From assembly GCA_963845755.1 (NCBI GenBank), contig CAWJTV010000041.1, positions 544,001 through 608,000 of the forward strand: a stretch of 64,000 bases of DNA, written 5' to 3'. Below are positions 44,880 through 53,525 of the stretch, in pieces (within the stretch, counting starts at the first letter, position 1; each line of letters begins with the position of its first letter). Below the pieces are notes generated by a model that saw nothing but the letters and a program-made list of their open reading frames with translations, did no database searches and was not told where the DNA came from. Both the position numbers and the translations under genes were made by a program. This stretch comes from an uncultured Planctomycetota bacterium. GTDB lineage: Bacteria; Planctomycetota; Planctomycetia; Isosphaerales; Isosphaeraceae.

Positions 44880-45198
44880 TGACGTAAGCGAGGGTCCGGA
44901 TCTTGGCGAGTCATCGCGGCCAGGCGCGGCTTGCGGCGAGCCGGTATTTCTCTCCCAACATTCGGTGCCACTCGAATTTCTGTGGCGATCAGTGTCTCAC
45001 GTTCTCGCCGAGGGCATTGGTCTTGCTAGCCCAGCCTGGTCCGTGAGCATAAACCACCAAACAACTGGCTTCATGATGAGCAGCCATGGCCAGAAATCGA
45101 TCACGGCGGCGCTGCAACTCGACGGCTACACCGAATACTGTCCCGATTGTTGCAACCACAGCCATCCACCACCGAGTCGTCATCCGGGGCAGTCGCAT
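44880..45198 (-). CDS. Small membrane-anchored hypothetical protein (MRLPRMTTR type, frameshifted)
   Basis: GGAGG RBS, MRLPRMTTRWWMAVVA; continues WHRMLGEKYRLAASRAWP in another frame; 3' end approximate. Confidence 0.6.
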
Positions 45199-45236
45199 GA
45201 CCCGAACCTCCGGGCTGACAGACTGGCCAGTCTGAT

Positions 45237-45320
45237 CTCTAGTCCAGGATTTATACCGCAGACTTGACGTAAGTCCTTTCTCGACGTCTCAGATTCCGTT
45301 GATGGGAGGGGGATATTCAC
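45237..45320. repeat. 84-bp direct repeat, copy 1
   Basis: ctctagtccagg...cttgacgtaagtcctttctcgacgtc...ggatattcac; matches 45940-46023. Confidence 0.85.
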
Positions 45321-45470
45321 CGGAGGGGTAGGAAGGGGCATTGCTAATCCCCCAGGCAAAATACATAGGATGACGAAGGCGTTGTTTCCCATATTGCCCA
45401 TCCTGCGTTAATGTTAAGCAATCCCCTTTGGCAGGCTTTGTTACTGCTTCAGCGGAGACGGCACGACAAA

Positions 45471-45782
45471 TTAGTCGAGGAGGTGATCACGCATCTGAAC
45501 CTTCCCGCTTGGCTTCGGGATAGGACCTCTTGCACGGCTTCGCTGGGATCTGGTGCCCATGGCCACAAGATACATACCCCCCAGCCAAAAACCGAGAAAG
45601 CTGCCGGCCGCCCCGCCCAAGAACACGAATACGGCAGCAATGAACGCCAGAATAAATAGGGACCCTACGTGATCGATATCATTTGGGTTGTTACTCGGCA
45701 AGAGGAGGATCACCAGGAAACAGATAAGGCCGGCTATAGCCCCGATCACCAAGCCATAGACCGTCGGTCGAAGTAGTCGCAT
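45471..45782 (-). CDS. Small hypothetical membrane protein
   Basis: MRLLRPTVYGLVIGAIAGLICFLVILLL with further hydrophobic helices; start uncertain. Confidence 0.55.
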   Translation of the reverse strand: MRLLRPTVYGLVIGAIAGLICFLVILLLPSNNPNDIDHVGSLFILAFIAAVFVFLGGAAGSFLGFWLGGMYLVAMGTRSQRSRARGPIPKPSGKVQMRDHLLD

Positions 45783-45939
45783 GATGATGCGGTCCTGTTT
45801 TCTCGAATGCTTCCGGACGACCCGATTTCGATGTGCATGGACTCCGAAGGGATTGACGAGGATGCGCATGGCCACGACCTCGACCGCTTCCATCGTCCGC
45901 CGTGAGGAGGTCGCATGCCCCCTTCCTGTGAAGGCTCGA

Positions 45940-46023
45940 CTCTAGTCCAGGCATTGCACCGCAGCCTTGACGTAAGTCCTTTCTCGACGTCCCTGATTTC
46001 GTCGATAGGAGGGGGATATTCAC
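45940..46023. repeat. 84-bp direct repeat, copy 2
   Basis: Same length and core as 45237-45320. Confidence 0.85.
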
Positions 46024-46256
46024 TGTTTACACATCGGACACTTGTTAGCCATTCCTCTATCGAGGTTGTCAGACGTTCACAGCACGGCCCAGGGCCTTTC
46101 TCAAGGATACCGCGGCGCAGGTTCGTTGCACCAGCGTCAAACCCTCGCGAGGTGTGAGGAATGGAGAATCCGCACTCTTCACAACACTCGGACCAGGATA
46201 GAAGACCAACTGGTCATGATGAATCGACAAGGGGAACGTCGGGGACAGGCGATGAG

Positions 46257-46327
46257 AGGCGCCGGCGGGAGTCGAACCCGCTTCCGCGGTTTTGCAGACC
46301 GCTGCCCGGCCGTCAGGCTCCGGCGCC
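46257..46327 (-). tRNA. tRNA-Cys(GCA)
   Basis: plus gcggt-tttgcag-accgc; U73. Confidence 0.92.
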
Positions 46328-46357
46328 CTGAGTGCTTCGACCCTCCCTCGGAGGGCA

Positions 46358-46430
46358 TGTCCTCGCCAGGAATCGAACCTGGTCTCCGACCTTCGCAAAG
46401 TCGTGTGCGCGTCCGTCACACTCCGAGGAC
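46358..46430 (-). tRNA. tRNA-Arg(GCG)
   Basis: plus cgacc-ttcgcaa-agtcg. Confidence 0.88.
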
Positions 46431-46457
46431 AACGATCGGAACAGGACCGTTGACGAG

Positions 46458-46528
46458 TCCCCCACCCGGGAATCGAACCCGGCCTTGCGGCTTCGAAGAC
46501 CGCCGTGCGTCCGCCACACCCGCAGGGA
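46458..46528 (-). tRNA. tRNA-Arg(TCG)
   Basis: plus gcggc-ttcgaag-accgc. Confidence 0.85.
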
Positions 46529-46538
46529 AACAGCCGAG

Positions 46539-46610
46539 TGCCCTTGCCAGGAGTCGAACCTGGTCTTCGACCTTCGGAGGGTCGCGTGCCGTCCGTCACA
46601 CGCCAAGGGC
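46539..46610 (-). tRNA. tRNA-Arg(CCG)
   Basis: plus cgacc-ttcggag-ggtcg. Confidence 0.9.
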
Positions 46611-46618
46611 GCAATCGA

Positions 46619-46690
46619 AGCCGACGGCCGGGCTCGAACCGGCATGAACCTGCTTACAAGGCAGGGGCCTCACCGTTCGGCCACGTCGGC
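46619..46690 (-). tRNA. tRNA-Thr(TGT)
   Basis: plus cctgc-ttacaag-gcagg. Confidence 0.92.
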
Positions 46691-46699
46691 AGATAAGAG

Positions 46700-46769
46700 C
46701 AGGGGCGCAAGGATTTGAACCCTGTCCGCGAGCTTTGGAAACTCGCTGCTCTCCCAGGAGCACACCCCT
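46700..46769 (-). tRNA. tRNA-Trp(CCA)
   Basis: plus cgagc-tttggaa-actcg; G73. Confidence 0.88.
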
Positions 46770-46791
46770 ATCATTCGATCGATTGAGCGAG

Positions 46792-46864
46792 GGTATTCGG
46801 CGGGAGTTGAACCCGGCGCCTCGAGATTCACAGTCTCGCATGCTTCCGCTACACCACGAACACC
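46792..46864 (-). tRNA. tRNA-His(GTG)
   Basis: plus cgaga-ttcacag-tctcg; G-1:C73. Confidence 0.9.
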
Positions 46865-46901
46865 ATCAGCAAGTCCGGCCCGAGGTTCACCCGGGCCGAG
46901 G

Positions 46902-46985
46902 CGGAAGGGGCGGGAGTCGAACCCGCAAGGCTCATCGCTCGTCCGCTTTCCAAGCGGGTCCCGTCGCCGGTCGGGTGGCCCTTCC
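46902..46985 (-). tRNA. tRNA-Ser(GGA)
   Basis: plus tccgc-tttccaa-gcggg; long variable arm; G73. Confidence 0.88.
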
Positions 46986-47002
46986 GTATCAATCAGTTTC
47001 AG

Positions 47003-47076
47003 TGGGCGATGCAGGGGTCGAACCTGCGGCCTCCAGCGTGTCATGCTGGCGCTCTGGCCGGCTGAGCTAACCGCCC
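47003..47076 (-). tRNA. tRNA-Val(GAC)
   Basis: plus ccagc-gtgtcat-gctgg. Confidence 0.92.
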
Positions 47077-47087
47077 GGATGATCCAT

Positions 47088-47160
47088 TACCCCGACCAGG
47101 ACTCGAACCCGAAACTCCTCGTTAGGACCGAGGCGTGATCCTCCCTTTCACCATCGGGGC
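47088..47160 (-). tRNA. tRNA-Arg(CCT)
   Basis: plus cctcg-ttaggac-cgagg. Confidence 0.85.
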
Positions 47161-47170
47161 CAGGAACAAG

Positions 47171-47256
47171 CGGAAGGCAAGGGATTCGAACCCTCATCCC
47201 CTCTCGAGGAACCGTTTTAGCAGGACGGCTCGGCAAACCGTATCCGACTACCTTCC
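47171..47256 (-). tRNA. tRNA-Ser(GCT)
   Basis: plus ccgtt-ttagcag-gacgg; long variable arm. Confidence 0.88.
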
Positions 47257-47263
47257 GTTCGAG

Positions 47264-47334
47264 TGGACCCACCGGGAGTCGAACCCGGGTCTCCGGCCTG
47301 CCGAGCCGGTGTCGTTCCGCTGGACGATGGGCCC
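47264..47334 (-). tRNA. tRNA-Ala(GGC)
   Basis: plus ccggc-ctgccga-gccgg; G3:U70; C33. Confidence 0.88.
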
Positions 47335-47364
47335 TTCAAACTTCCCAACCTGCGTTCAACCGAG

Positions 47365-47435
47365 TGGACCGCCGGGGAGTCGAACCCCGATTCCCGGCGT
47401 GCGATACCGGTGTCGTCCCGTTGGACCAGCAGCCC
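47365..47435 (-). tRNA. tRNA-Ala(CGC)
   Basis: plus ccggc-gtgcgat-accgg; G3:U70. Confidence 0.88.
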
Positions 47436-47445
47436 GTTTGCGAGA

Positions 47446-47516
47446 AGGTCCGCCCGAGAATCGAACTCGGTCCCCCTCCTTACCATGGAGGTGTGCTGCC
47501 GGAACACCTGCAGACC
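47446..47516 (-). tRNA. tRNA-Thr(GGT)
   Basis: plus cctcc-ttaccat-ggagg. Confidence 0.88.
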
Positions 47517-47529
47517 GGACGGCGGAGAG

Positions 47530-47602
47530 TCGTCCCGGCAGGACTCGAACCTGCGCTAACCTGTGTGTAAGACAGGCGTCTTGGCCGCTAGACGACGGGA
47601 CG
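47530..47602 (-). tRNA. tRNA-Val(TAC)
   Basis: plus cctgt-gtgtaag-acagg. Confidence 0.92.
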
Positions 47603-47614
47603 AATTGCGGTCAG

Positions 47615-47688
47615 TAGCACGGGTGGGATTCGAACCCACAGACACCAGGCCCTCGACCTGGTCGCGATGCCAGTTAGCGTACCGTGCC
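47615..47688 (-). tRNA. tRNA-Leu(GAG), short variable loop
   Basis: plus ccagg-ccctcga-cctgg; 5-nt variable loop; C33. Confidence 0.82.
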
Positions 47689-47702
47689 AGGAACACCGAC
47701 AG

Positions 47703-47771
47703 TTGCGGGTCGGGGAGTCGAACCTCCGTCTCCGAGCGTATGAAACTCGGCCGAGCACCGGCCCACCCGCA
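47703..47771 (-). tRNA. tRNA(CAT), fMet-like acceptor stem, reduced D arm
   Basis: plus cgagc-gtatgaa-actcg; TGCGGGT/ACCCGCA acceptor. Confidence 0.7.
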
Positions 47772-47772
47772 G

Positions 47773-47842
47773 TCCCAGGCCCCGGTATCGAGCCGGGCGG
47801 ATCGGCCTCATGAAAGCCAACCGGGCACCTGCCTCGCCTGGG
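47773..47842 (-). tRNA. tRNA(CAT), Met or Ile2, reduced D arm
   Basis: plus cggcc-tcatgaa-agcca; T loop CUCGAUA. Confidence 0.65.
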
Positions 47843-47875
47843 AAACTCGCAGTATCAGTCCAACCGATCAATCAG

Positions 47876-47958
47876 TCGCCAGGGGGAGATTCGAACTCCC
47901 ACGCCTCGAGGGCACGTGCTTCTGAGGCCCGCGCGTCTACCAGTTCCGCCACCCGGCG
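47876..47958 (-). tRNA. tRNA-Leu(CAG)
   Basis: plus cgtgc-ttctgag-gcccg; long variable arm. Confidence 0.88.
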
Positions 47959-47973
47959 CGTCGTCCAGTACAG

Positions 47974-48046
47974 TAGTCCGTGCGGGAATCGAACCCGCCT
48001 CTTCAGCTTGAGGGGCTGATATCCTGAGCCGATAGACGAACGGACC
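47974..48046 (-). tRNA. tRNA-Glu(CTC)
   Basis: plus tcagc-ttgaggg-gctga; C33. Confidence 0.88.
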
Positions 48047-48064
48047 TTGAATAAGAACCTCCAG

Positions 48065-48150
48065 TGGGTAGTGAAGGAGTTGAACCTTCCGCCTTCCGCC
48101 TCACAACTTGAGGGCAACGGTTTTACAGACCGCCGTGAGGAACACCACCC
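48065..48150 (-). tRNA. tRNA-Tyr(GTA), D-armless, very long variable region
   Basis: plus acggt-tttacag-accgc; only 10 nt between acceptor and anticodon stems. Confidence 0.75.
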
Positions 48151-48169
48151 GAGAAAAACCATCCGCGAG

Positions 48170-48244
48170 TAGCACGGGTGGGAGTCGAACCCACAGAATC
48201 CCCGGGTTTGAGCCGGGTCGCTTTGCCGGTTTGCGTACCGTGCC
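48170..48244 (-). tRNA. tRNA-Leu(CAA), short variable loop
   Basis: plus cccgg-gtttgag-ccggg; 6-nt variable loop. Confidence 0.85.
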
Positions 48245-48260
48245 ATCTCTCCTACTCCAG

Positions 48261-48335
48261 CGCCCCCGGCGGGATTCGAACCCGCGACCTCCACTGTGAC
48301 AGAGTGGCGAGCTCTCCAGGCTGCTCCACGAAGGC
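48261..48335 (-). tRNA. tRNA-Asp(GTC)
   Basis: plus ccact-gtgacag-agtgg; G73. Confidence 0.9.
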
Positions 48336-48344
48336 GTGATCGAA

Positions 48345-48418
48345 TGGCTCAGGAGGGAGTCGAACCCTCAGCATCCCTCGTTCTAAGCGAGAGTGGTCTG
48401 CCGATTGCCTACCGAGCC
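48345..48418 (-). tRNA. tRNA-Leu(TAG), short variable loop
   Basis: plus cctcg-ttctaag-cgaga. Confidence 0.83.
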
Positions 48419-48443
48419 GAGAACTCTTGCACCGAGAACCCAT

Positions 48444-48516
48444 TACCCAGGGTGGGAGTCGAACCCACAGGCGCCCGGGTTTAAGCCGGGCCGCTCAGCC
48501 GTTGGCGTACCTGGGT
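48444..48516 (-). tRNA. tRNA-Leu(TAA), short variable loop
   Basis: plus cccgg-gtttaag-ccggg; 5-nt variable loop. Confidence 0.85.
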
Positions 48517-48529
48517 CCTCTCTCCGAGG

Positions 48530-48614
48530 CGGAAGCCGTGGGACTCGAACCCACAAGCGGCCTGCGCCGCCACCTGCTTTCAAGACAGGCCCCTGATCCA
48601 GCCGGTTGGCTTCC
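48530..48614 (-). tRNA. tRNA-Ser(TGA)
   Basis: plus cctgc-tttcaag-acagg; long variable arm. Confidence 0.85.
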
Positions 48615-48634
48615 GTGAGGGCATTCCACGCGAG

Positions 48635-48709
48635 TTCCGGGGGCTGGAATCGAACCAGCGGCCTCCGCGTTCAGAGCGCGGCGTCACTACCACCAGCAAC
48701 TGCCCCGGA
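48635..48709 (-). tRNA. tRNA-Gln(CTG)
   Basis: plus ccgcg-ttcagag-cgcgg; U1-A72. Confidence 0.9.
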
Positions 48710-48782
48710 TTCGGGAAGGAGGAATTCGAACCCCCACCGCCTGATTCAAAGTCAGGGAGCCTACCACTTAGCCGATTCCCGA
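48710..48782 (-). tRNA. tRNA-Gln(TTG)
   Basis: plus cctga-ttcaaag-tcagg; abuts the previous gene. Confidence 0.87.
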
Positions 48783-48783
48783 G

Positions 48784-48853
48784 AGCGCCCCGCGGGAGTC
48801 GAACCCGCCTTTCGGACCTGGGAAGCCCGCCCTGACCGCTCGGCCAGGGACGC
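48784..48853 (-). tRNA. tRNA-Gly(CCC)
   Basis: plus cggac-ctgggaa-gcccg. Confidence 0.83.
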
Positions 48854-48871
48854 ATCAACCGTCGCTTCGAG

Positions 48872-48942
48872 TGCGGGATCGGGGAGTCGAACCCCGATCG
48901 CCTGGTTGGAAGCCAGGAATCTTGCCATTGGACCAATCCCGC
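48872..48942 (-). tRNA. tRNA-Gly(TCC)
   Basis: plus cctgg-ttggaag-ccagg; A73. Confidence 0.9.
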
Positions 48943-48952
48943 GGCCTGCCAG

Positions 48953-49036
48953 CGGAAGGAGAGGGAGTCGAACCCTCAAGGCTCATCGCTCGTCCGGATT
49001 CGAGCCGGGTGCCGTCGCCAATCGGCTTGCCCTTCC
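48953..49036 (-). tRNA. tRNA-Ser(CGA)
   Basis: plus tccgg-attcgag-ccggg; long variable arm. Confidence 0.88.
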
Positions 49037-49046
49037 CCAGGAACAG

Positions 49047-49121
49047 CTCCGGCGGCAGGAATCGAACCTGCGTCCCCCCGGTTAACAGCCGGGCGCTCGT
49101 ACCAGCACGAACTCCACCGGA
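49047..49121 (-). tRNA. tRNA-Asn(GTT)
   Basis: plus cccgg-ttaacag-ccggg; G73. Confidence 0.9.
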
Positions 49122-49138
49122 ATCATCGCGTCAGACAG

Positions 49139-49213
49139 TCGGGATGGCCGGATTTGAACCGGCGATTTCCTGCTCCCAAGGCAGGCGGATTAGCCAGGCT
49201 TTCCTACATCCCG
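49139..49213 (-). tRNA. tRNA-Pro(TGG)
   Basis: plus cctgc-tcccaag-gcagg; C1-G72, A73. Confidence 0.92.
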
Positions 49214-49233
49214 AGTCGCCTCGTTTTCCGACA

Positions 49234-49304
49234 AGTGCCCAGCGGGAGTCGAACCCGCACGTCCGCCTTGGCAAAGCGGTAGGCTTCCGCTACATCATGG
49301 GCAC
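49234..49304 (-). tRNA. tRNA-Gly(GCC)
   Basis: plus ccgcc-ttggcaa-agcgg; U73. Confidence 0.9.
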
Positions 49305-49336
49305 GATCGCCGTCCCCGAATTGTCAAGGAACCGAG

Positions 49337-49408
49337 AGCACCGGGTGGGACTCGAACCCACGTCGCCGCCTTACGAGAGCGGAGTCTTCGCCGCTGGACG
49401 ACCAGTGC
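49337..49408 (-). tRNA. tRNA-Thr(CGT)
   Basis: plus ccgcc-ttacgag-agcgg. Confidence 0.9.
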
Positions 49409-49419
49409 CTGCATCACGA

Positions 49420-49492
49420 TGGGACCGGAGGGGCTCGAACCCTCACCGAACCGGTTAAGAGCCGGACGTTCTGCCGCTAGAACTTCAGTCCC
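49420..49492 (-). tRNA. tRNA-Lys(CTT)
   Basis: plus accgg-ttaagag-ccgga. Confidence 0.9.
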
Positions 49493-49506
49493 GACTGGTA
49501 GATGAG

Positions 49507-49579
49507 TAGCCCGTGTGGGAATCGAACCCACCTCTCCGCCTTGAAAGGGCGGTATCCTGCGCCGATAGACGAACGAGCC
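49507..49579 (-). tRNA. tRNA-Glu(TTC)
   Basis: plus ccgcc-ttgaaag-ggcgg. Confidence 0.92.
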
Positions 49580-49590
49580 ATCTTCACGAG

Positions 49591-49662
49591 TGGGCCGGGG
49601 GGCGCTCGAATCCCCGTCTGCCGGGCTTCAACCGGCCGCTAGACCGTCTCAGCTACCGACCC
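49591..49662 (-). tRNA. tRNA-Phe(GAA), first gene of the array
   Basis: plus gccgg-gcttcaa-ccggc; G37. Confidence 0.85.
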
Positions 49663-49675
49663 ATTCCGCGATCCC

Positions 49676-49711
49676 AACAAAAAGGCCCGGTGTCTTCGTC
49701 ACACCGGGCCT
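49676..49711 (-). terminator. Intrinsic terminator (attenuator) directly upstream of the tRNA array
   Basis: minus AGGCCCGGTGT-gacgaag-ACACCGGGCCT-TTTTGTT: perfect 11-bp stem plus U tract, oriented with the array. Confidence 0.85.
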
Positions 49712-49745
49712 GAGACTCCACGCGAGGGATGTCCGAGACCGGGTG

Positions 49746-49847
49746 TCACGTCTGCAAGGGATAGAACCGGAGCGGGTTCGCCGACAGGTCGGCGGATCGC
49801 TTCGTTTCTTGACAACCCAGGGTGTAACGCGGACTCCCGGCGAACAT
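49746..49847 (-). CDS. Putative leader peptide, 33 aa, MFAGSPRYTLGCQETKRSADLSANPLRFYPLQT
   Basis: GAGGT SD at 49853-57, ATG at 49847, TGA at 49746-48 inside the antiterminator; too short for the ORF track. Confidence 0.72.
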   Translation of the reverse strand: MFAGSPRYTLGCQETKRSADLSANPLRFYPLQT

Positions 49848-49930
49848 GGACAACCTCGATGTTACGGGTGTCTCAGGCCGACTGGACTCGGGGCCAACCT
49901 CACGGCTCGCCCGTCGTCTTGTACCCTTAC

Positions 49931-49956
49931 AGACGCATCACCCCGGGAGGATGTTC
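49931..49956 (-). promoter_or_regulatory. Putative ECF-type promoter of the leader/tRNA array
   Basis: minus GAAC-N17-CGTCT, about 85 nt upstream of the leader ATG. Confidence 0.5.
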
Positions 49957-49994
49957 GCGCGATTTCGAAGAGATTATTGGTGGAGCCATTTCCG

Positions 49995-50080
49995 ATCCCG
50001 ATTCGCTGCATTACGGCCCGCCATCGAGCGTTCGCCGGGACCATGAACGATACGATCTCTTCGAGGCCGAGCACCAGGGG
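49995..50080 (-). pseudogene. Fragment of a RimJ/RimL-type GNAT acetyltransferase
   Basis: LGLEEIVSFMVPANARWRAVMQRIG resembles a GNAT C-terminal motif; no complete gene. Confidence 0.5.
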
Positions 50081-50259
50081 CGTATCCGTTCTCTCGCCGC
50101 AAGTCCAAATCGCTCAAGCCCTCGGGAGATGTCGAGATGGGCGAGGGGCCTCGAAAATCATTGGACCTGACGTGTTCCGTGCCGGTACGTCGCATAGAGG
50201 GGAGATGGGTGACTGAGCGGGACAGGCAAGCCGTCTGCCACACTTTACAGGAGAAGCTC

Positions 50260-51324
50260 ATGCAGACCATGACCACGGAACTCGAGCGGTTGATCGGCAA
50301 GGTCATTGGGGACCTGGGCGGCACGGCCAACGCGGCCCTCGTTATCGTCGGCGACCGGCTCGGGTTATATCGGACCCTCGCCGAGATCGGCCCCACTACC
50401 TCGCACGAACTGGCCCAGCAGACTGGCACGCACGAGCGATATATCCGCGAGTGGCTTGCCGCCCAGGCGGCTTCCGACTATGTCGACTACGACCCGGCCA
50501 CCAAGCGGTTCAGCATGTCCCGCGAGCAAGCCATGCTCTTTGCCGATGAGAACAGTCCGGTGTACATGGCCGGAGGCTTCTTCGCCGCGGCGGCGGCCAT
50601 CAACGACGAACGACACCTGGCGGAGGCGTTCCGGTCGGGACGTGGGATCGCATGGAGCGATCACCACGACTGCCTGTTCTGCGGCACGGAGAAGTTCTTC
50701 CGCCCGTCCTATGCCGGAAACCTCCTCCAGTCGTGGATCCCGTCGCTGGGGGACATGCACGCGAGGCTCCAGGCCGGGGGAACCGTGGCCGATCTCGGCT
50801 GTGGGCACGGTTGCTCCACCGTCCTCATGGCGAAGGCCTATCCGGCCTCCACGTTCGTCGGCTTCGATAGCCACATGCCGTCGATCGAGCGCGCCCGCGA
50901 GACGGCGGCCGCGCAGGAACTCCCCAACGCACGCTTCGAGGTCGCGACGGCGCAAAACTTCACACGGATTGATGGAGACGGCTACGACCTGGTCGCGATC
51001 TTCGACGCCCTGCATGACATGGGCGACCCGCACGGCGCGGCCCGTCGAGTGCGAGAGATGTTGAAAGCCGATGGAACCTGGATGATCGTCGAACCGGCCG
51101 CGGGCGATCGGCTGGAGGAGAACCTCAACCCGGTGGGCCGCGTGTTCTATGCCCTCTCCACGGCCGTCTGCGTCCCCTCGGCCTTGAGCCAGAAAGGGGG
51201 CGAATCGCTTGGGGCTCAGGCCGGACCTGCCGTGTTGGAGAACGTGGTCACCAGCAGCGGCTTCTCCAGATTCCGGATCGCCACAAAGTCCCCGTTCAAT
51301 CTGGTGATCGAGGCCAAGCGATAA
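50260..51324 (+). CDS. Class I SAM-dependent methyltransferase with N-terminal winged helix (Rv2258c-like)
   Basis: GDRLGLY, ERYIREWL, VADLGCGHG, FDALHDMGDP, LGAQAG. Confidence 0.92.
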   Translation: MQTMTTELERLIGKVIGDLGGTANAALVIVGDRLGLYRTLAEIGPTTSHELAQQTGTHERYIREWLAAQAASDYVDYDPATKRFSMSREQAMLFADENSPVYMAGGFFAAAAAINDERHLAEAFRSGRGIAWSDHHDCLFCGTEKFFRPSYAGNLLQSWIPSLGDMHARLQAGGTVADLGCGHGCSTVLMAKAYPASTFVGFDSHMPSIERARETAAAQELPNARFEVATAQNFTRIDGDGYDLVAIFDALHDMGDPHGAARRVREMLKADGTWMIVEPAAGDRLEENLNPVGRVFYALSTAVCVPSALSQKGGESLGAQAGPAVLENVVTSSGFSRFRIATKSPFNLVIEAKR

Positions 51325-51340
51325 CCCCAGATTTGTCGAT

Positions 51341-52204
51341 CTACTCCAGCCCCGGGATCTTCGCCGGGCCGCCGGACTTGCCGTCGCCCTCGGTGTTTTT
51401 CTTCTCCCGGATCCGTTTCGCGAGGAATCTGGCCGACTCGTCGCCGATCACGTGGTAACCAGCCGGGTTGGGATGGCGATCGCCGAACCAGCCGGGCAGC
51501 TCGCGGAAATGGGCGTCGAGCCGGTTGTCCATCACCACGACCCGGCCGTCCCTGACGAACGGCTTGACCCAATCGCGGTCCTTCTCCGGGATCTTCTCCA
51601 GCGGGTAGCGGCGGTAGTTGAGCATGTGCGATCCGTGCTTCAGCTCAGCCCGGTAGCGGGTATACACGTCGAACAAGACCAGGCGCTCCGACTCGGCCAC
51701 CTTCCGGATGAGACGGTTCACCGTCTCGTCGCGCTCCGGAGTCATGTAGGGGATGATCGTCATTGGGACGATGGTCGCGCACGGGAAGTGCCGGCGCAGG
51801 CGCCCGATCAGGTCGGAGTAGTCCTTCGGGAAGTTGACCTCGAACCCCTCGCGCCTGACGATGTCATTCAGGCCGTAGCGGATGAGGACGTAATCGATGC
51901 CTTCGAGAGTGGCGATGTCCTTGTCGAACCGACCGGAGGCGAGCAGGCCCTGGATGAACTCGCCGTCTCGCCCCTGATTGATGACCTCGGCCGGCGGCAG
52001 GTCCTTCTCCGCCGCGAGCAGCAGCCGGATCACGTCTTCGAGGTGGGGACCATCGGGATCGACCTGGCGGCAGACGCTGCCGATGGTTGTGCTGTCGCCC
52101 AGAAGGAGGATCCTGAGTTTTCCCGCCTCCTCACCCGAGGCCGCAGCCGGTACGGTCATGAGCCCGACGATGCACCACGACCGCAAAGAGTTCATCAGAC
52201 GCAT
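51341..52204 (-). CDS. Secreted SGNH/GDSL hydrolase
   Basis: LLLGDSTT, INQGRDG, YGLND, DRHPNPAGY. Confidence 0.88.
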   Translation of the reverse strand: MRLMNSLRSWCIVGLMTVPAAASGEEAGKLRILLLGDSTTIGSVCRQVDPDGPHLEDVIRLLLAAEKDLPPAEVINQGRDGEFIQGLLASGRFDKDIATLEGIDYVLIRYGLNDIVRREGFEVNFPKDYSDLIGRLRRHFPCATIVPMTIIPYMTPERDETVNRLIRKVAESERLVLFDVYTRYRAELKHGSHMLNYRRYPLEKIPEKDRDWVKPFVRDGRVVVMDNRLDAHFRELPGWFGDRHPNPAGYHVIGDESARFLAKRIREKKNTEGDGKSGGPAKIPGLE

Positions 52205-52451
52205 CGGACCGGTTCTCCTGGGATGTGGGCTGCCGCTTGTTCCGGGCCGATCTCGGTTCCGCTCGCCCGCGAATCGCTCATCGGGGAGTGTCCCACCGCC
52301 ACACCTACCAGGTCGCGGGCTGGGGACAGGTCCATTCAGAATAATCGCCCAGTATGCCAGGGAGTAGACCACGCCGGATTCACCGGGCCATGCGTTAACA
52401 ACGGGACCGGCGTCAAGAGCGCGGCGTGAGGCGGTCGCGCCGGGGAACGGG

Positions 52452-53525
52452 CTATTTCCCCGAGAGTGAGGCGAGTCTCGAGAGCGTCTCCTCTCCGAGC
52501 CGCCTCGTGAGCTCGCCCGCCGGTAACTCGCGGCAGAGGTGCGCCGCCTGCCCCGACCAGAGCGGCGAGAAGTCCCCCGAGCCTTCCGCCTCGGACTTCG
52601 ACCGAAGGGGCGCCACTGCACCCGCCGCGAGCGGGAACCTCGGTGCGATCTCGGACAGGGGACCGACTTCGCGAACAAGACGGTTCATGATCCCCCGCGC
52701 GGGGCGGCCCGTGAAGACGTTTGTGATTGTCGTCTCGCCGGCACCTTTCAGCGCCGTCCGGTGGACCTCGCTCGTCGTCGCCTCCGGGCAGAGGAGATAG
52801 GCCGTGCCGATCTGGACGGCCGAGGCCCCGAGCGCGAGGGCCGCGACGACGCCTCGCGCGTCGGCGATGCCGCCCGCGGCGATAACCGGCACGCGCACAG
52901 CGTCGGCCACCTGTGGGACGAGCGCCATCGTCCCGACCTGGGTCGAGACGTCCTCCGACAGGAACATCCCCCGATGCCCCCCCGCCTCGGCGCCCTGAGC
53001 GATGATCGCGTCGCAGCCCCTGGCCTCGAGCCAGCGTGCCTCCTCGACCGAGGTCGCAGACGAGATGACCTTCGCGCCCGATGACTTGACCCGGGCCAGG
53101 AGCTCCCCATCCGGGAGACCGAAATGAAAACTCACGACCTCGGCCTTGAGCTCGCAGACGACCTCGCACATCGCCTTGTCGAACGGTAGGCGGCTCGTCA
53201 CCGCGGTCGGGGCCGTCGGGTCGAGCCCGAGCTCGACGTAGTATCGCTCGAGGCGATTCTTCCACACGGAGACGCGGTCGGGATCTGGGCCGGGAGGCGT
53301 GTGACAGAAGAAATTCAGGTTGATAGGTTTCGAGGATTGCCGACGAATAGACTTCACCTCGCTTCGAACCTGATCCGACCCGAGCAGTGCGCAGGGAAGT
53401 GATCCCAGTCCCCCGGCCTCAGAGACGGCGATCGCAAGCCCGGAGCCATTCGACCCCGCCATGGGGGCCTGGATGATCGGAAGTTCAATCCCGAAGAGGT
53501 CGAGGATCCGACGGTCCGGCCACAT
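52452..53525 (-). CDS. Nitronate monooxygenase family flavoprotein
   Basis: PIIQAPMAG, QGAEAGGHRG, VIAAGGIAD, VQIGTAYL. Confidence 0.93.
   Translation of the reverse strand: MWPDRRILDLFGIELPIIQAPMAGSNGSGLAIAVSEAGGLGSLPCALLGSDQVRSEVKSIRRQSSKPINLNFFCHTPPGPDPDRVSVWKNRLERYYVELGLDPTAPTAVTSRLPFDKAMCEVVCELKAEVVSFHFGLPDGELLARVKSSGAKVISSATSVEEARWLEARGCDAIIAQGAEAGGHRGMFLSEDVSTQVGTMALVPQVADAVRVPVIAAGGIADARGVVAALALGASAVQIGTAYLLCPEATTSEVHRTALKGAGETTITNVFTGRPARGIMNRLVREVGPLSEIAPRFPLAAGAVAPLRSKSEAEGSGDFSPLWSGQAAHLCRELPAGELTRRLGEETLSRLASLSGK

Follow-up and report, generated by a model that had tools for sequence, protein, structure and literature searches.

A short reading frame and terminator ahead of a planctomycete tRNA gene array: a candidate translation-sensing attenuator

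Architecture of the locus

A stretch of 64,000 nucleotides from an uncultured planctomycete of the Isosphaeraceae (contig CAWJTV010000041.1, positions 544,001–608,000; referred to as the window) carries on its minus strand a dense array of tRNA genes headed by tRNA-Phe(GAA). Upstream of this gene a short open reading frame (ORF), the leader ORF, is followed by an intrinsic terminator. The frame reads ATG TTC GCC ... ACG TGA, and a Shine-Dalgarno (SD)-like GAGG is located 6 nt 5' of its ATG. It ends 35 nt 5' of the terminator, which consists of an 11-bp stem (49711–49683), 8 of whose pairs are G-C, with TTTTTGTT directly after it. Between the end of the T-run and tRNA-Phe there are about 20 nt. 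This is the anatomy of an attenuator, and it bears out the proposal of an earlier, sequence-only reading that a leader ORF lies upstream of the array. The coordinates of all features are given in Table 1. The genome of the present contig is designated G000; other G numbers denote relatives and L numbers denote loci.

Two segments of the leader resemble the arms of the terminator. Codons 3–7 (segment 1) are a near-copy of the 5' arm (B). The strand that begins with the stop codon (segment 2, or A) is a near-copy of the 3' arm (C) and can pair with arm B. The stop codon is thus placed in the strand that competes for the 5' arm of the terminator.

The sequence-only reading had counted 37 array anticodons, where ARAGORN gives 36. 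That count had included a doubtful 92-nt 'tRNA-Phe' predicted by ARAGORN at 52543–52634 (minus strand) and had missed a tRNA-Tyr(GTA). The former is probably a false prediction, as it lies inside protein-coding ORFs and has no Rfam tRNA match at E ≤ 1. Among 44 related loci that were scanned, 43 have tRNA-Phe at the head of the array; at the remaining locus a tRNA lies upstream of it.

Table 1. Coordinates of the leader, the tRNA array and related features.
Feature	Position	Strand	Details
Promoter-like box	49931–49960	minus	GCGCGAACATC (49960–49950), 13-nt gap, GCGTCT (49936–49931)
Long helix, 5' strand	49854–49880	minus	TGAGAC (49875–49870) and GAGG (49857–49854)
Leader ORF	49746–49847	minus	ATG at 49847, 33 sense codons and TGA; peptide MFAGSPRYTLGCQETKRSADLSANPLRFYPLQT
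Apical hairpin P1, codons 18–23	49779–49794	minus	CGCCGAC CTG TCGGCG
Segment 2 (A), stop codon and antiterminator strand	49736–49748	minus	TGACACCCGGTCT
Long helix, 3' strand of the base	49711–49728	minus	anti-SD CCCTCG (49728–49723), GTCTCA (49716–49711)
Intrinsic terminator	49675–49711	minus	arm B 49711–49701, loop, arm C 49693–49683, T-run
tRNA array	46256–49662	minus	36 genes (ARAGORN), within 3.4 kb
tRNA-Phe(GAA), head of the array	49590–49662	minus	ARAGORN
Probable tRNA-Tyr(GTA), long variable arm	~48064–48150	minus	loop read by eye; Rfam 29.7 bits; missed by ARAGORN at default settings
Second tRNA with CAT anticodon	~47772–47842	minus	in an array gap; found only at a lowered ARAGORN threshold
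Cassette loci L133 and L134	contig C20, 431501–432244 and 449962–451106		mini-arrays of 4 and 5 tRNAs

Conservation of the reading frame

A BLAST search with the leader gave a match in 61 of 121 genomes of the family. In 26 of them the match reaches the terminator hairpin, so that the terminator is kept in at least 26 of the 121. Scanning one genome each of 185,579 species with a pattern of hairpin and tRNA-Phe returned 55 stretches, nearly all of them titled Isosphaeraceae, Singulisphaera, Pirellulales, Pirellulaceae, Planctomycetaceae, Blastopirellula or Rubripirellula. Two of the 55, from Streptomyces and Kitasatospora, are chance matches. The matches in metagenome-assembled genomes (MAGs) of Burkholderiaceae (L054, doubtful) and Rokubacteria may be binning errors. 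A strict ORF filter, requiring an SD regular expression and a stop at most 60 nt from the hairpin, is failed by 17 of the 55 stretches; most of these are leaders of Pirellulales in which the SD is weak or a further hairpin lies between A and B. In six Pirellulales MAGs (L060, L065, L066, L068, L070 and L071) an extra G+C-rich hairpin is inserted between the post-stop strand and the terminator, which places the stop 65–68 nt from the terminator arm.

Pooling yielded 78 distinct hairpin-bearing stretches. By reading, 64 of these are in leader orientation and 14 represent the reverse strand of the palindromic hairpin. An open frame ending just before the hairpin is present in 63 of the 64 distinct leaders, which come from Isosphaeraceae, Pirellulales and Planctomycetaceae. 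Its length is 33 codons in 43 leaders, 32 codons in five, 30, 34 and 38 codons in three each, 31 and 41 codons in two each, and 25 and 36 codons in one each. Among the 14 reverse-orientation controls, five have an ORF of 25–45 codons and none has one of 33 codons.

The frame is kept free of stops. In the 99 nt after the start, 28 sequences of the family contain two stops in frame 0, both of them the natural stops of shorter ORFs, compared with 24 and 18 in the other frames. Insertions in the leader are in frame (15 nt in L047, 24 nt in L069 and L090). The 68 ORF-bearing rows of the comparison start with ATG (58) or GTG (10); 56 have an SD-like, GAGG-like motif and 56 a TGAC stop context.

The encoded peptide, on the other hand, diverges between homologous leaders. 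Pairwise differences per site are nearly flat over codon positions 1, 2 and 3 (0.54, 0.54 and 0.57), and close leader pairs differ mostly nonsynonymously (2 synonymous and 8 nonsynonymous changes between G000 and G045). A micropeptide gene was rejected on account of these flat rates. Judging from the compared sequences, the leaders retain a frame that can be translated and whose length and position are fixed, rather than a protein.

The closest leaders, with 95% (G045, over the 186-nt query) and 90% (G050) identity, belong to genomes labelled as another genus. A genome of the same genus (G001, locus L014) has tRNA-Phe without a leader of the G000 type. This distribution over genera suggests transfer or loss of whole arrays.

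RNA structure of the leader

The minimum-free-energy fold of the G000 leader consists of one long irregular helix followed by the terminator. Its energy is -88.8 kcal/mol (z -4.16), and none of 200 shuffled sequences is as stable. In this fold the SD-like GAGG pairs with CCCTCG, TGAGAC pairs with GTCTCA, and codons 3–7 pair with segment A. The hairpin P1 forms the apex and is possibly, judging from the model, a pause hairpin for RNA polymerase.

The proportion of paired cells was counted on an alignment of 24 sequences. It is highest for the terminator (B:C, 92.8%). P1 reaches 77.8%, with changes on both sides in 4 of its 6 pairs, and the antiterminator A:B reaches 78.4%, compared with 28–39% in slid controls of the whole tested structure. 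The whole G000 fold is paired in 69.4% of cells (slid controls 36–46%) and helix 5 in 69.5%. Helices 1–3 at the base of the long helix range from 46 to 69%; the alignment is gappy there and the support weaker. The whole fold contains 128 double-change cells, compared with 73 ± 7 in shuffles, and none of 500 shuffles reaches 128.

The A:B duplex has an energy of -15.4 kcal/mol in G000. Over 42 leaders the mean is -16.7 kcal/mol, with z -2.56 relative to shuffled A and z < -2 in 25 of the 42. The support for the antiterminator is pairing potential, not covariation. The helix between segments 1 and 2 appears well supported by the sequences of the G000 clade and less so elsewhere.

Promoter-like box, further cassettes and genomic context

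All 26 aligned upstream regions contain GCGCGAACATC, GGGT, GCGTCT and GGT in this order, in a box about 85–115 nt 5' of the ATG. The spacing from GAAC (within CGAACA) to CGTC is 17 nt and does not vary over the 26 leaders. CGTC is presumably a -10 element of the extracytoplasmic function (ECF) type. By its likeness to known elements the box resembles an ECF-sigma promoter, an assignment that is offered as a lead only. In M. tuberculosis, GGAACA serves as the -35 element of a sigma-H promoter, for which a rigid spacer is described (10.1101/534826). A scan of 45500–53000 for sigma-70-like promoters returned no site.

The three patterns of the box occur together at four places in the G000 genome, three of which precede tRNA arrays. 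The fourth copy (L131, contig C20 near 720437, minus strand) has neither leader nor tRNAs behind it, and an IS66-family transposase lies on the other strand. It is probably a remnant cut off by insertion. As it leads into the opposite-strand transposase, it has no bearing on a wider regulon of the box. A looser match (GAGCGAAC, 17 nt, GCGTCT; L132, contig C12 near 109466, minus strand) is located about 70 nt before a 201-aa ORF without a Pfam family.

Two of the three array-linked boxes belong to further cassettes of box, leader and terminator on contig C20, each with a leader of 33 codons. One mini-array consists of Pro-GGG, Lys-TTT, Ile-TAT and Ile-GAT, the other of Ala-TGC, Arg-TCT, Val-GAC, His and Trp. 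In relatives these tRNAs sit inside the main array. The terminator of the second cassette (mini-array B) is about 230 nt away from the first tRNA. In two relatives (L108 in G008 and L118 in G062) the 7.5-kb array region contains a further leader ORF that has a terminator of its own. From their sequences, some arrays appear to be split into more than one leader-controlled unit.

The G000 genome (14.27 Mb in 49 contigs, 87.9% complete) contains 102 tRNAs according to ARAGORN, 66 of which lie outside the array and form a near-full dispersed set. Normal genes for tRNA-Phe, Arg-GCG and Leu-CAA are found only in the array. A BLAST search with tRNA-Phe gave exactly one match each in G000, G117 (99% complete), G024 (one contig), G070 and G065, and in the first four of these genomes the sole tRNA-Phe heads a leader-controlled array. 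The array is therefore not purely supernumerary; given the completeness of G000, a tRNA-Phe copy may have been missed there.

In four soil RNA libraries, contigs of relatives bridge tRNA-Phe, the terminator and the ORF, with spans such as 49611–49734, 49641–49764, 49611–49756 and 49705–49848. This is a weak hint that leader and tRNA-Phe can share one RNA, from contigs of libraries that may contain DNA. Such contigs carry neither transcript ends nor levels, and the uncovered parts of 49400–50000 are uninformative. A search of sequencing runs for the source organism returned partial holders only, in which the share of sampled words is at most 0.25.

Upstream of the leader, the neighboring gene is divergently oriented and encodes a methyltransferase with a helix-turn-helix domain (50137–51324, plus strand). 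A DUF1559 protein is also encoded in the window, in keeping with the placement among Planctomycetota.

Proposed mechanism

Judging from these comparisons, the ORF probably serves as leader in a ribosome-mediated attenuator of transcription, which gates the tRNA operon and acts as a general sensor of translation speed. The presence of three 33-codon leaders before three tRNA clusters in G000 counts in favor of this reading. The ORF, the terminator and the alternative pairings are conserved in the sequences compared; the direction of the switch, the type of promoter and the signal are what we infer.

Transcription would start about 75–80 nt 5' of the ATG, from the ECF-sigma-like promoter. Segment 1 would comprise codons 3–7 together with the ribosome-binding region, segment 2 the UGA and the next 12 nt, and segments 3 and 4 the 5' and 3' arms of the terminator. 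Segment 2 would have two alternative partners. Pairing 1:2 would form the long helix and hide the ribosome-binding site, and pairing 2:3 would form the antiterminator. If no ribosome is bound, 1:2 and then 3:4 would form, and transcription would stop 20 nt before tRNA-Phe. UGA followed by C is a slow context for termination of translation. A fast ribosome that has arrived at this stop would cover segment 2, so that 3:4 would form and transcription would again terminate. A delayed ribosome, or a queue of ribosomes, would hold segment 1 and free segment 2 for pairing 2:3, and the polymerase would enter the array. The signal would be the general speed of elongation, lowered by the scarcity of any charged tRNA or by a translation inhibitor. 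Since the ORF has no run of one codon, the response would be to a general slowing of elongation. Extending this to a homeostatic loop of tRNA supply in planctomycetes, with a 33-codon 'test' ORF, a terminator switch, an ECF-type promoter and the sole tRNA-Phe as its parts, is a more tentative step, about as likely to be wrong as right.

Several observations weigh against the attenuator. In the antiterminator A:B, double changes are confined to one of the 11 pairs, and 21 of 24 sequences retain a C-C mismatch at its center. The scarcity of double changes is explained by the strong conservation of both strands. The tested structure of the long helix was derived from G000, which is itself one of the aligned sequences, and this favors a good fit. 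By a cruder measure, the duplex of the 5' half and the 3' half of the leader, only 17 of 42 leaders have z < -2. One leader (L064) has a 1-nt frameshift and another (L012) lacks a start at the usual place. Constant geometry of the helix alone would also fix the distance from ATG to TGA. Finally, with the sole detected tRNA-Phe in the array, the array cannot be kept off. The terminator must therefore be leaky or usually overridden, with substantial basal read-through, and the switch would resemble a rheostat more than an on/off gate.

In the first alternative, the leader is a ribosome-independent RNA switch or processing element whose long helix and terminator respond to a protein, small molecule or RNase; the open frame would then be kept for some other reason or follow from the geometry of the helix. 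The single long, conserved, irregular helix that makes up most of the leader is in line with this, as are the unconstrained peptide and the location of the most conserved 'codons' in paired RNA motifs. Such an element would not account for the avoidance of stops in frame 0 only or for the in-frame insertions, and the start codon, the SD-like motif and the UGA stop are kept across orders. Furthermore, an Rfam search over 45000–53000 (E ≤ 1) returned only tRNAs, and 49663–50137 matches no family, T-box included. A ribosome-independent element is unlikely.

Codon content of the leader

The sequence-only reading had described the leader as sampling almost the whole codon table and mirroring the anticodons of the array. 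Its counts were confirmed by a script: there are 33 sense codons, 28 of them distinct, for 16 amino acids. The opening 18 codons are all different, and the first repeat is GCC at codon 19. This diversity is unusual in comparison with genes and only weakly so in comparison with the composition of the leader itself. Likely genes (2,062 ORFs with a length of 500 aa or more and a G+C content at third codon positions, GC3, above 0.72; sampled in 20,620 windows of 33 codons) contain 21.3 ± 2.5 distinct codons per window, with P = 0.004 for at least 28. For the 1,566 ORFs of the genome that start with ATG and have exactly 33 codons, the corresponding values are 22.8 ± 2.4 and P = 0.027, and a first run of at least 18 different codons has P = 0.019. 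Shuffles of the leader's own bases without an in-frame stop give 25.3 ± 1.85 distinct codons (P = 0.116; P = 0.054 for the run). The leader is diverse relative to genes because these are codon-biased; relative to a sequence of its own composition its diversity is only mildly high. Across 27 homologous leaders the number of distinct codons ranges from 16 to 30, with a mean z of 0.07 relative to shuffles of their own composition; no excess is kept in the family, and codon diversity as a selected design is not supported. The codon variety is a by-product of the lack of codon bias and of a conserved peptide.

The codons ending in A or T, which had been noted as conspicuous for the high G+C content, are ordinary: GC3 is 0.76 in the leader, and its median over ORFs of 500 aa or more is 0.78. 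A design based on rare codons was rejected, since the G000 leader is gene-like in GC3 and the family, with a mean of 0.62, looks free of bias. The leader ORF contains no run of any single codon, and the clustered regulatory codons of the classical amino-acid attenuators are absent from it. Across the leaders no convincingly enriched sensor codon was found. Phe is enriched 1.9-fold, mainly at codon 18 inside P1. A Phe-specific attenuator, to which the first and unique tRNA-Phe might point, was rejected: there are about 1.5 Phe codons per leader, without runs and with the peak at codon 18 in P1.

A further alternative retains the attenuator and holds that the codon set of the leader was selected to sample the codons of its own array, as a designed sensor of all its tRNAs. 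For the comparison, the array was taken as 37 anticodons including the added Tyr, with standard wobble. It reads 53 of the 61 codons, corresponding to 91.5% of the codon usage in long ORFs of G000. The leader codons touch 31 of the 37 anticodons, not 26 as previously stated. Position-preserving shuffles touch 25.0 (P = 0.011), and over 46 leaders the mean shift is +0.61 SD. This excess of touched anticodons lends the selected sensor some support. One leader codon (CCC) is unread; shuffles have 3.9 unread codons (P = 0.077), and gene usage would give 2.7 (P = 0.23). The fraction read by the G000 array is 0.91 for its own leader and 0.90 for unrelated leaders, which therefore fit it equally well, and the proposed mirror is mostly not supported as a selected design.

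The codons absent from the leader lead to the same result. The lack of Ile, AAA, GCA and AGA codons had been described as matching tRNAs that the array lacks. The leader of G045 lacks ATH, AAA, AGA and GCA codons too, and the array of G045 has Pro-GGG, Lys-TTT, two Ile tRNAs, Ala-TGC and Arg-TCT. GTG had been listed among the codons without a tRNA; it is read by the Val-TAC of the array through ordinary U34 wobble.

Arrays were fetched at 31 loci, and the leader ORF was recovered at 26 of these; together with the three G000 arrays this gave 29 leader-array pairs. The codons readable by the own array exceed those in shuffles with a mean z of +1.28 (+1.36 over 23 sequence clusters). The excess is 1.55 in frame 0, compared with 0.20 and 0.33 in the other frames and 0.51 on the reverse strand. 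Permutation of the arrays and tallies of tRNAs against codons were carried out on 26 pairs, after three arrays touching the end of their region had been dropped. Own arrays read 0.605 and permuted arrays 0.558 ± 0.011, a difference reached in none of 5000 permutations. This significance shrank once arrays met unrelated leaders: on the same array, the own leader ranks at a mean percentile of 0.62 among unrelated ones (Wilcoxon P = 0.056), and at 0.52 in G000.

Single tRNAs point in both directions. Of the 19 leaders whose array carries Ile-GAT, 14 contain Ile codons, and none of the seven whose array lacks it does. The leader of the Lys-TTT/Ile mini-array has AAA and ATC, and that of the Arg-TCT mini-array has AGA. 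The strongest single case for codon matching is L121 (G099), where 9 of 32 leader codons are read by an array of five tRNAs (Phe, Glu, Lys, Ile, Lys), compared with 2.7 expected. For Val-TAC the trend is reversed, with the codon in none of 12 leaders with the tRNA in the array and in 7 of 14 without. The most enriched codons (AAT, GAA, GCG, and TTC at codon 18) are part of conserved RNA motifs, and since the genomes are related the t-values overstate the support. Most of the readable-codon effect is explained by a choice of codons that resembles that of genes, combined with arrays whose tRNAs read the common codons. A small array-specific component may be present as a weak trend, and a codon set selected for its own array is distinctly unlikely. 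Of the earlier proposal that the leader senses the loss of nearly any tRNA, one part stands: without a single-codon run, many stall sites are plausible. Selection for codon diversity or for a match to the anticodons does not.

Relation of the ORF to transcription of the array

It is very unlikely that the ORF and hairpin form a separate small gene or small RNA, with the array transcribed by unregulated read-through or from another start. The strength of the terminator would suit such a unit, as would the long distance between terminator and first tRNA in mini-array B, and an array with the sole tRNA-Phe must be expressed by some route. However, the gap between T-run and tRNA-Phe leaves no room for a promoter, and the sigma-70-like scan found none in its range. 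Moreover, box, ORF, terminator and tRNA-Phe stay linked across dozens of genomes, and the stop codon lies exactly in the strand competing for the terminator. A chance ORF in a GC-rich intergenic region, with which near-random codon statistics and the frequency of open frames at 64% G+C would agree, is effectively refuted by the same 33-codon frame in 43 of 64 distinct leaders from three planctomycete lineages.

Comparison with known systems

To our knowledge, apart from the growth-rate control of promoters, little is understood of the ways in which bacteria adjust their tRNA supply to demand. If the attenuator reading is correct, an ORF whose elongation speed gates tRNA transcription would be a simple feedback. 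It would offer a mechanism for the reported induction of long arrays under translational stress. Should the more tentative homeostatic loop hold, translation-sensed attenuation would be a general, so far undescribed mode of tRNA gene regulation. The motif of box, 33-codon ORF, UGA-C and terminator is compact and conserved, and more cases could be found by searching for it. The feedback is testable in culturable Isosphaeraceae such as Singulisphaera, of which one complete genome carries the leader (L095, at the locus also represented by G117).

Long tRNA arrays (L-arrays) are defined by at least 20 tRNA genes and at least 2 per kb (PMC4758250). With 36 genes in 3.4 kb the present array is of this size. 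It shares with L-arrays the dense arrangement of dozens of tRNA genes duplicating most of the dispersed set, and Planctomycetes are among the phyla listed as having them. Unlike supernumerary L-arrays, it holds the sole detected tRNA-Phe. The L-array of Anabaena is reported to be induced when translation is impaired, via repeats over the -10 box and the transcription start (PMC8421152). The words 'leader', 'attenuat' and 'terminator' have no occurrence in that paper. In the literature on tRNA arrays, attenuation and translational stress, no description of a leader-peptide attenuator before tRNA genes was found.

Judging from sequence and arrangement, the planctomycete system has the appearance of an attenuator that senses translation and controls a tRNA operon, and it is widespread in Planctomycetota. 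Attenuators of the trpL, hisL, pheL and pheM type have a leader peptide before amino-acid operons and pheST. The present leader shares with them the short ORF, the potential for 2:3 and 3:4 pairings, the stop beside segment 2 and the intrinsic terminator directly before the first structural gene; a 1:2 helix like theirs is best supported in the G000 clade. It differs in the lack of a codon run for a single amino acid and in its targets, which are tRNAs instead of enzymes or a synthetase. Furthermore, the host is a planctomycete, and segment 1 would also sequester the ribosome-binding site.

By analogy, the nearest functional relatives would be the upstream ORF (uORF) of whiB7 in mycobacteria and bmrB of Bacillus subtilis. 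Stalling on the whiB7 uORF leads to antitermination and is induced by inhibiting many amino-acid, tRNA and synthetase genes (PMC10274678). Broad sensing of translation stress, as proposed here, would be common to both systems. The whiB7 uORF varies in sequence between species, which is again a shared trait. It is enriched in Ala and controls a transcription factor, whereas the output of the planctomycete leader is tRNA; there is no sequence relation. For bmrB, translation-dependent read-through induced by protein-synthesis antibiotics is reported (PMC4191407). This ORF controls the ABC transporter bmrCD and its terminator lies within the coding region, unlike that of the present leader. A small ORF, alternative stem-loops and a terminator are the features that bmrB has in common with the planctomycete leader, and the likeness is one of anatomy.

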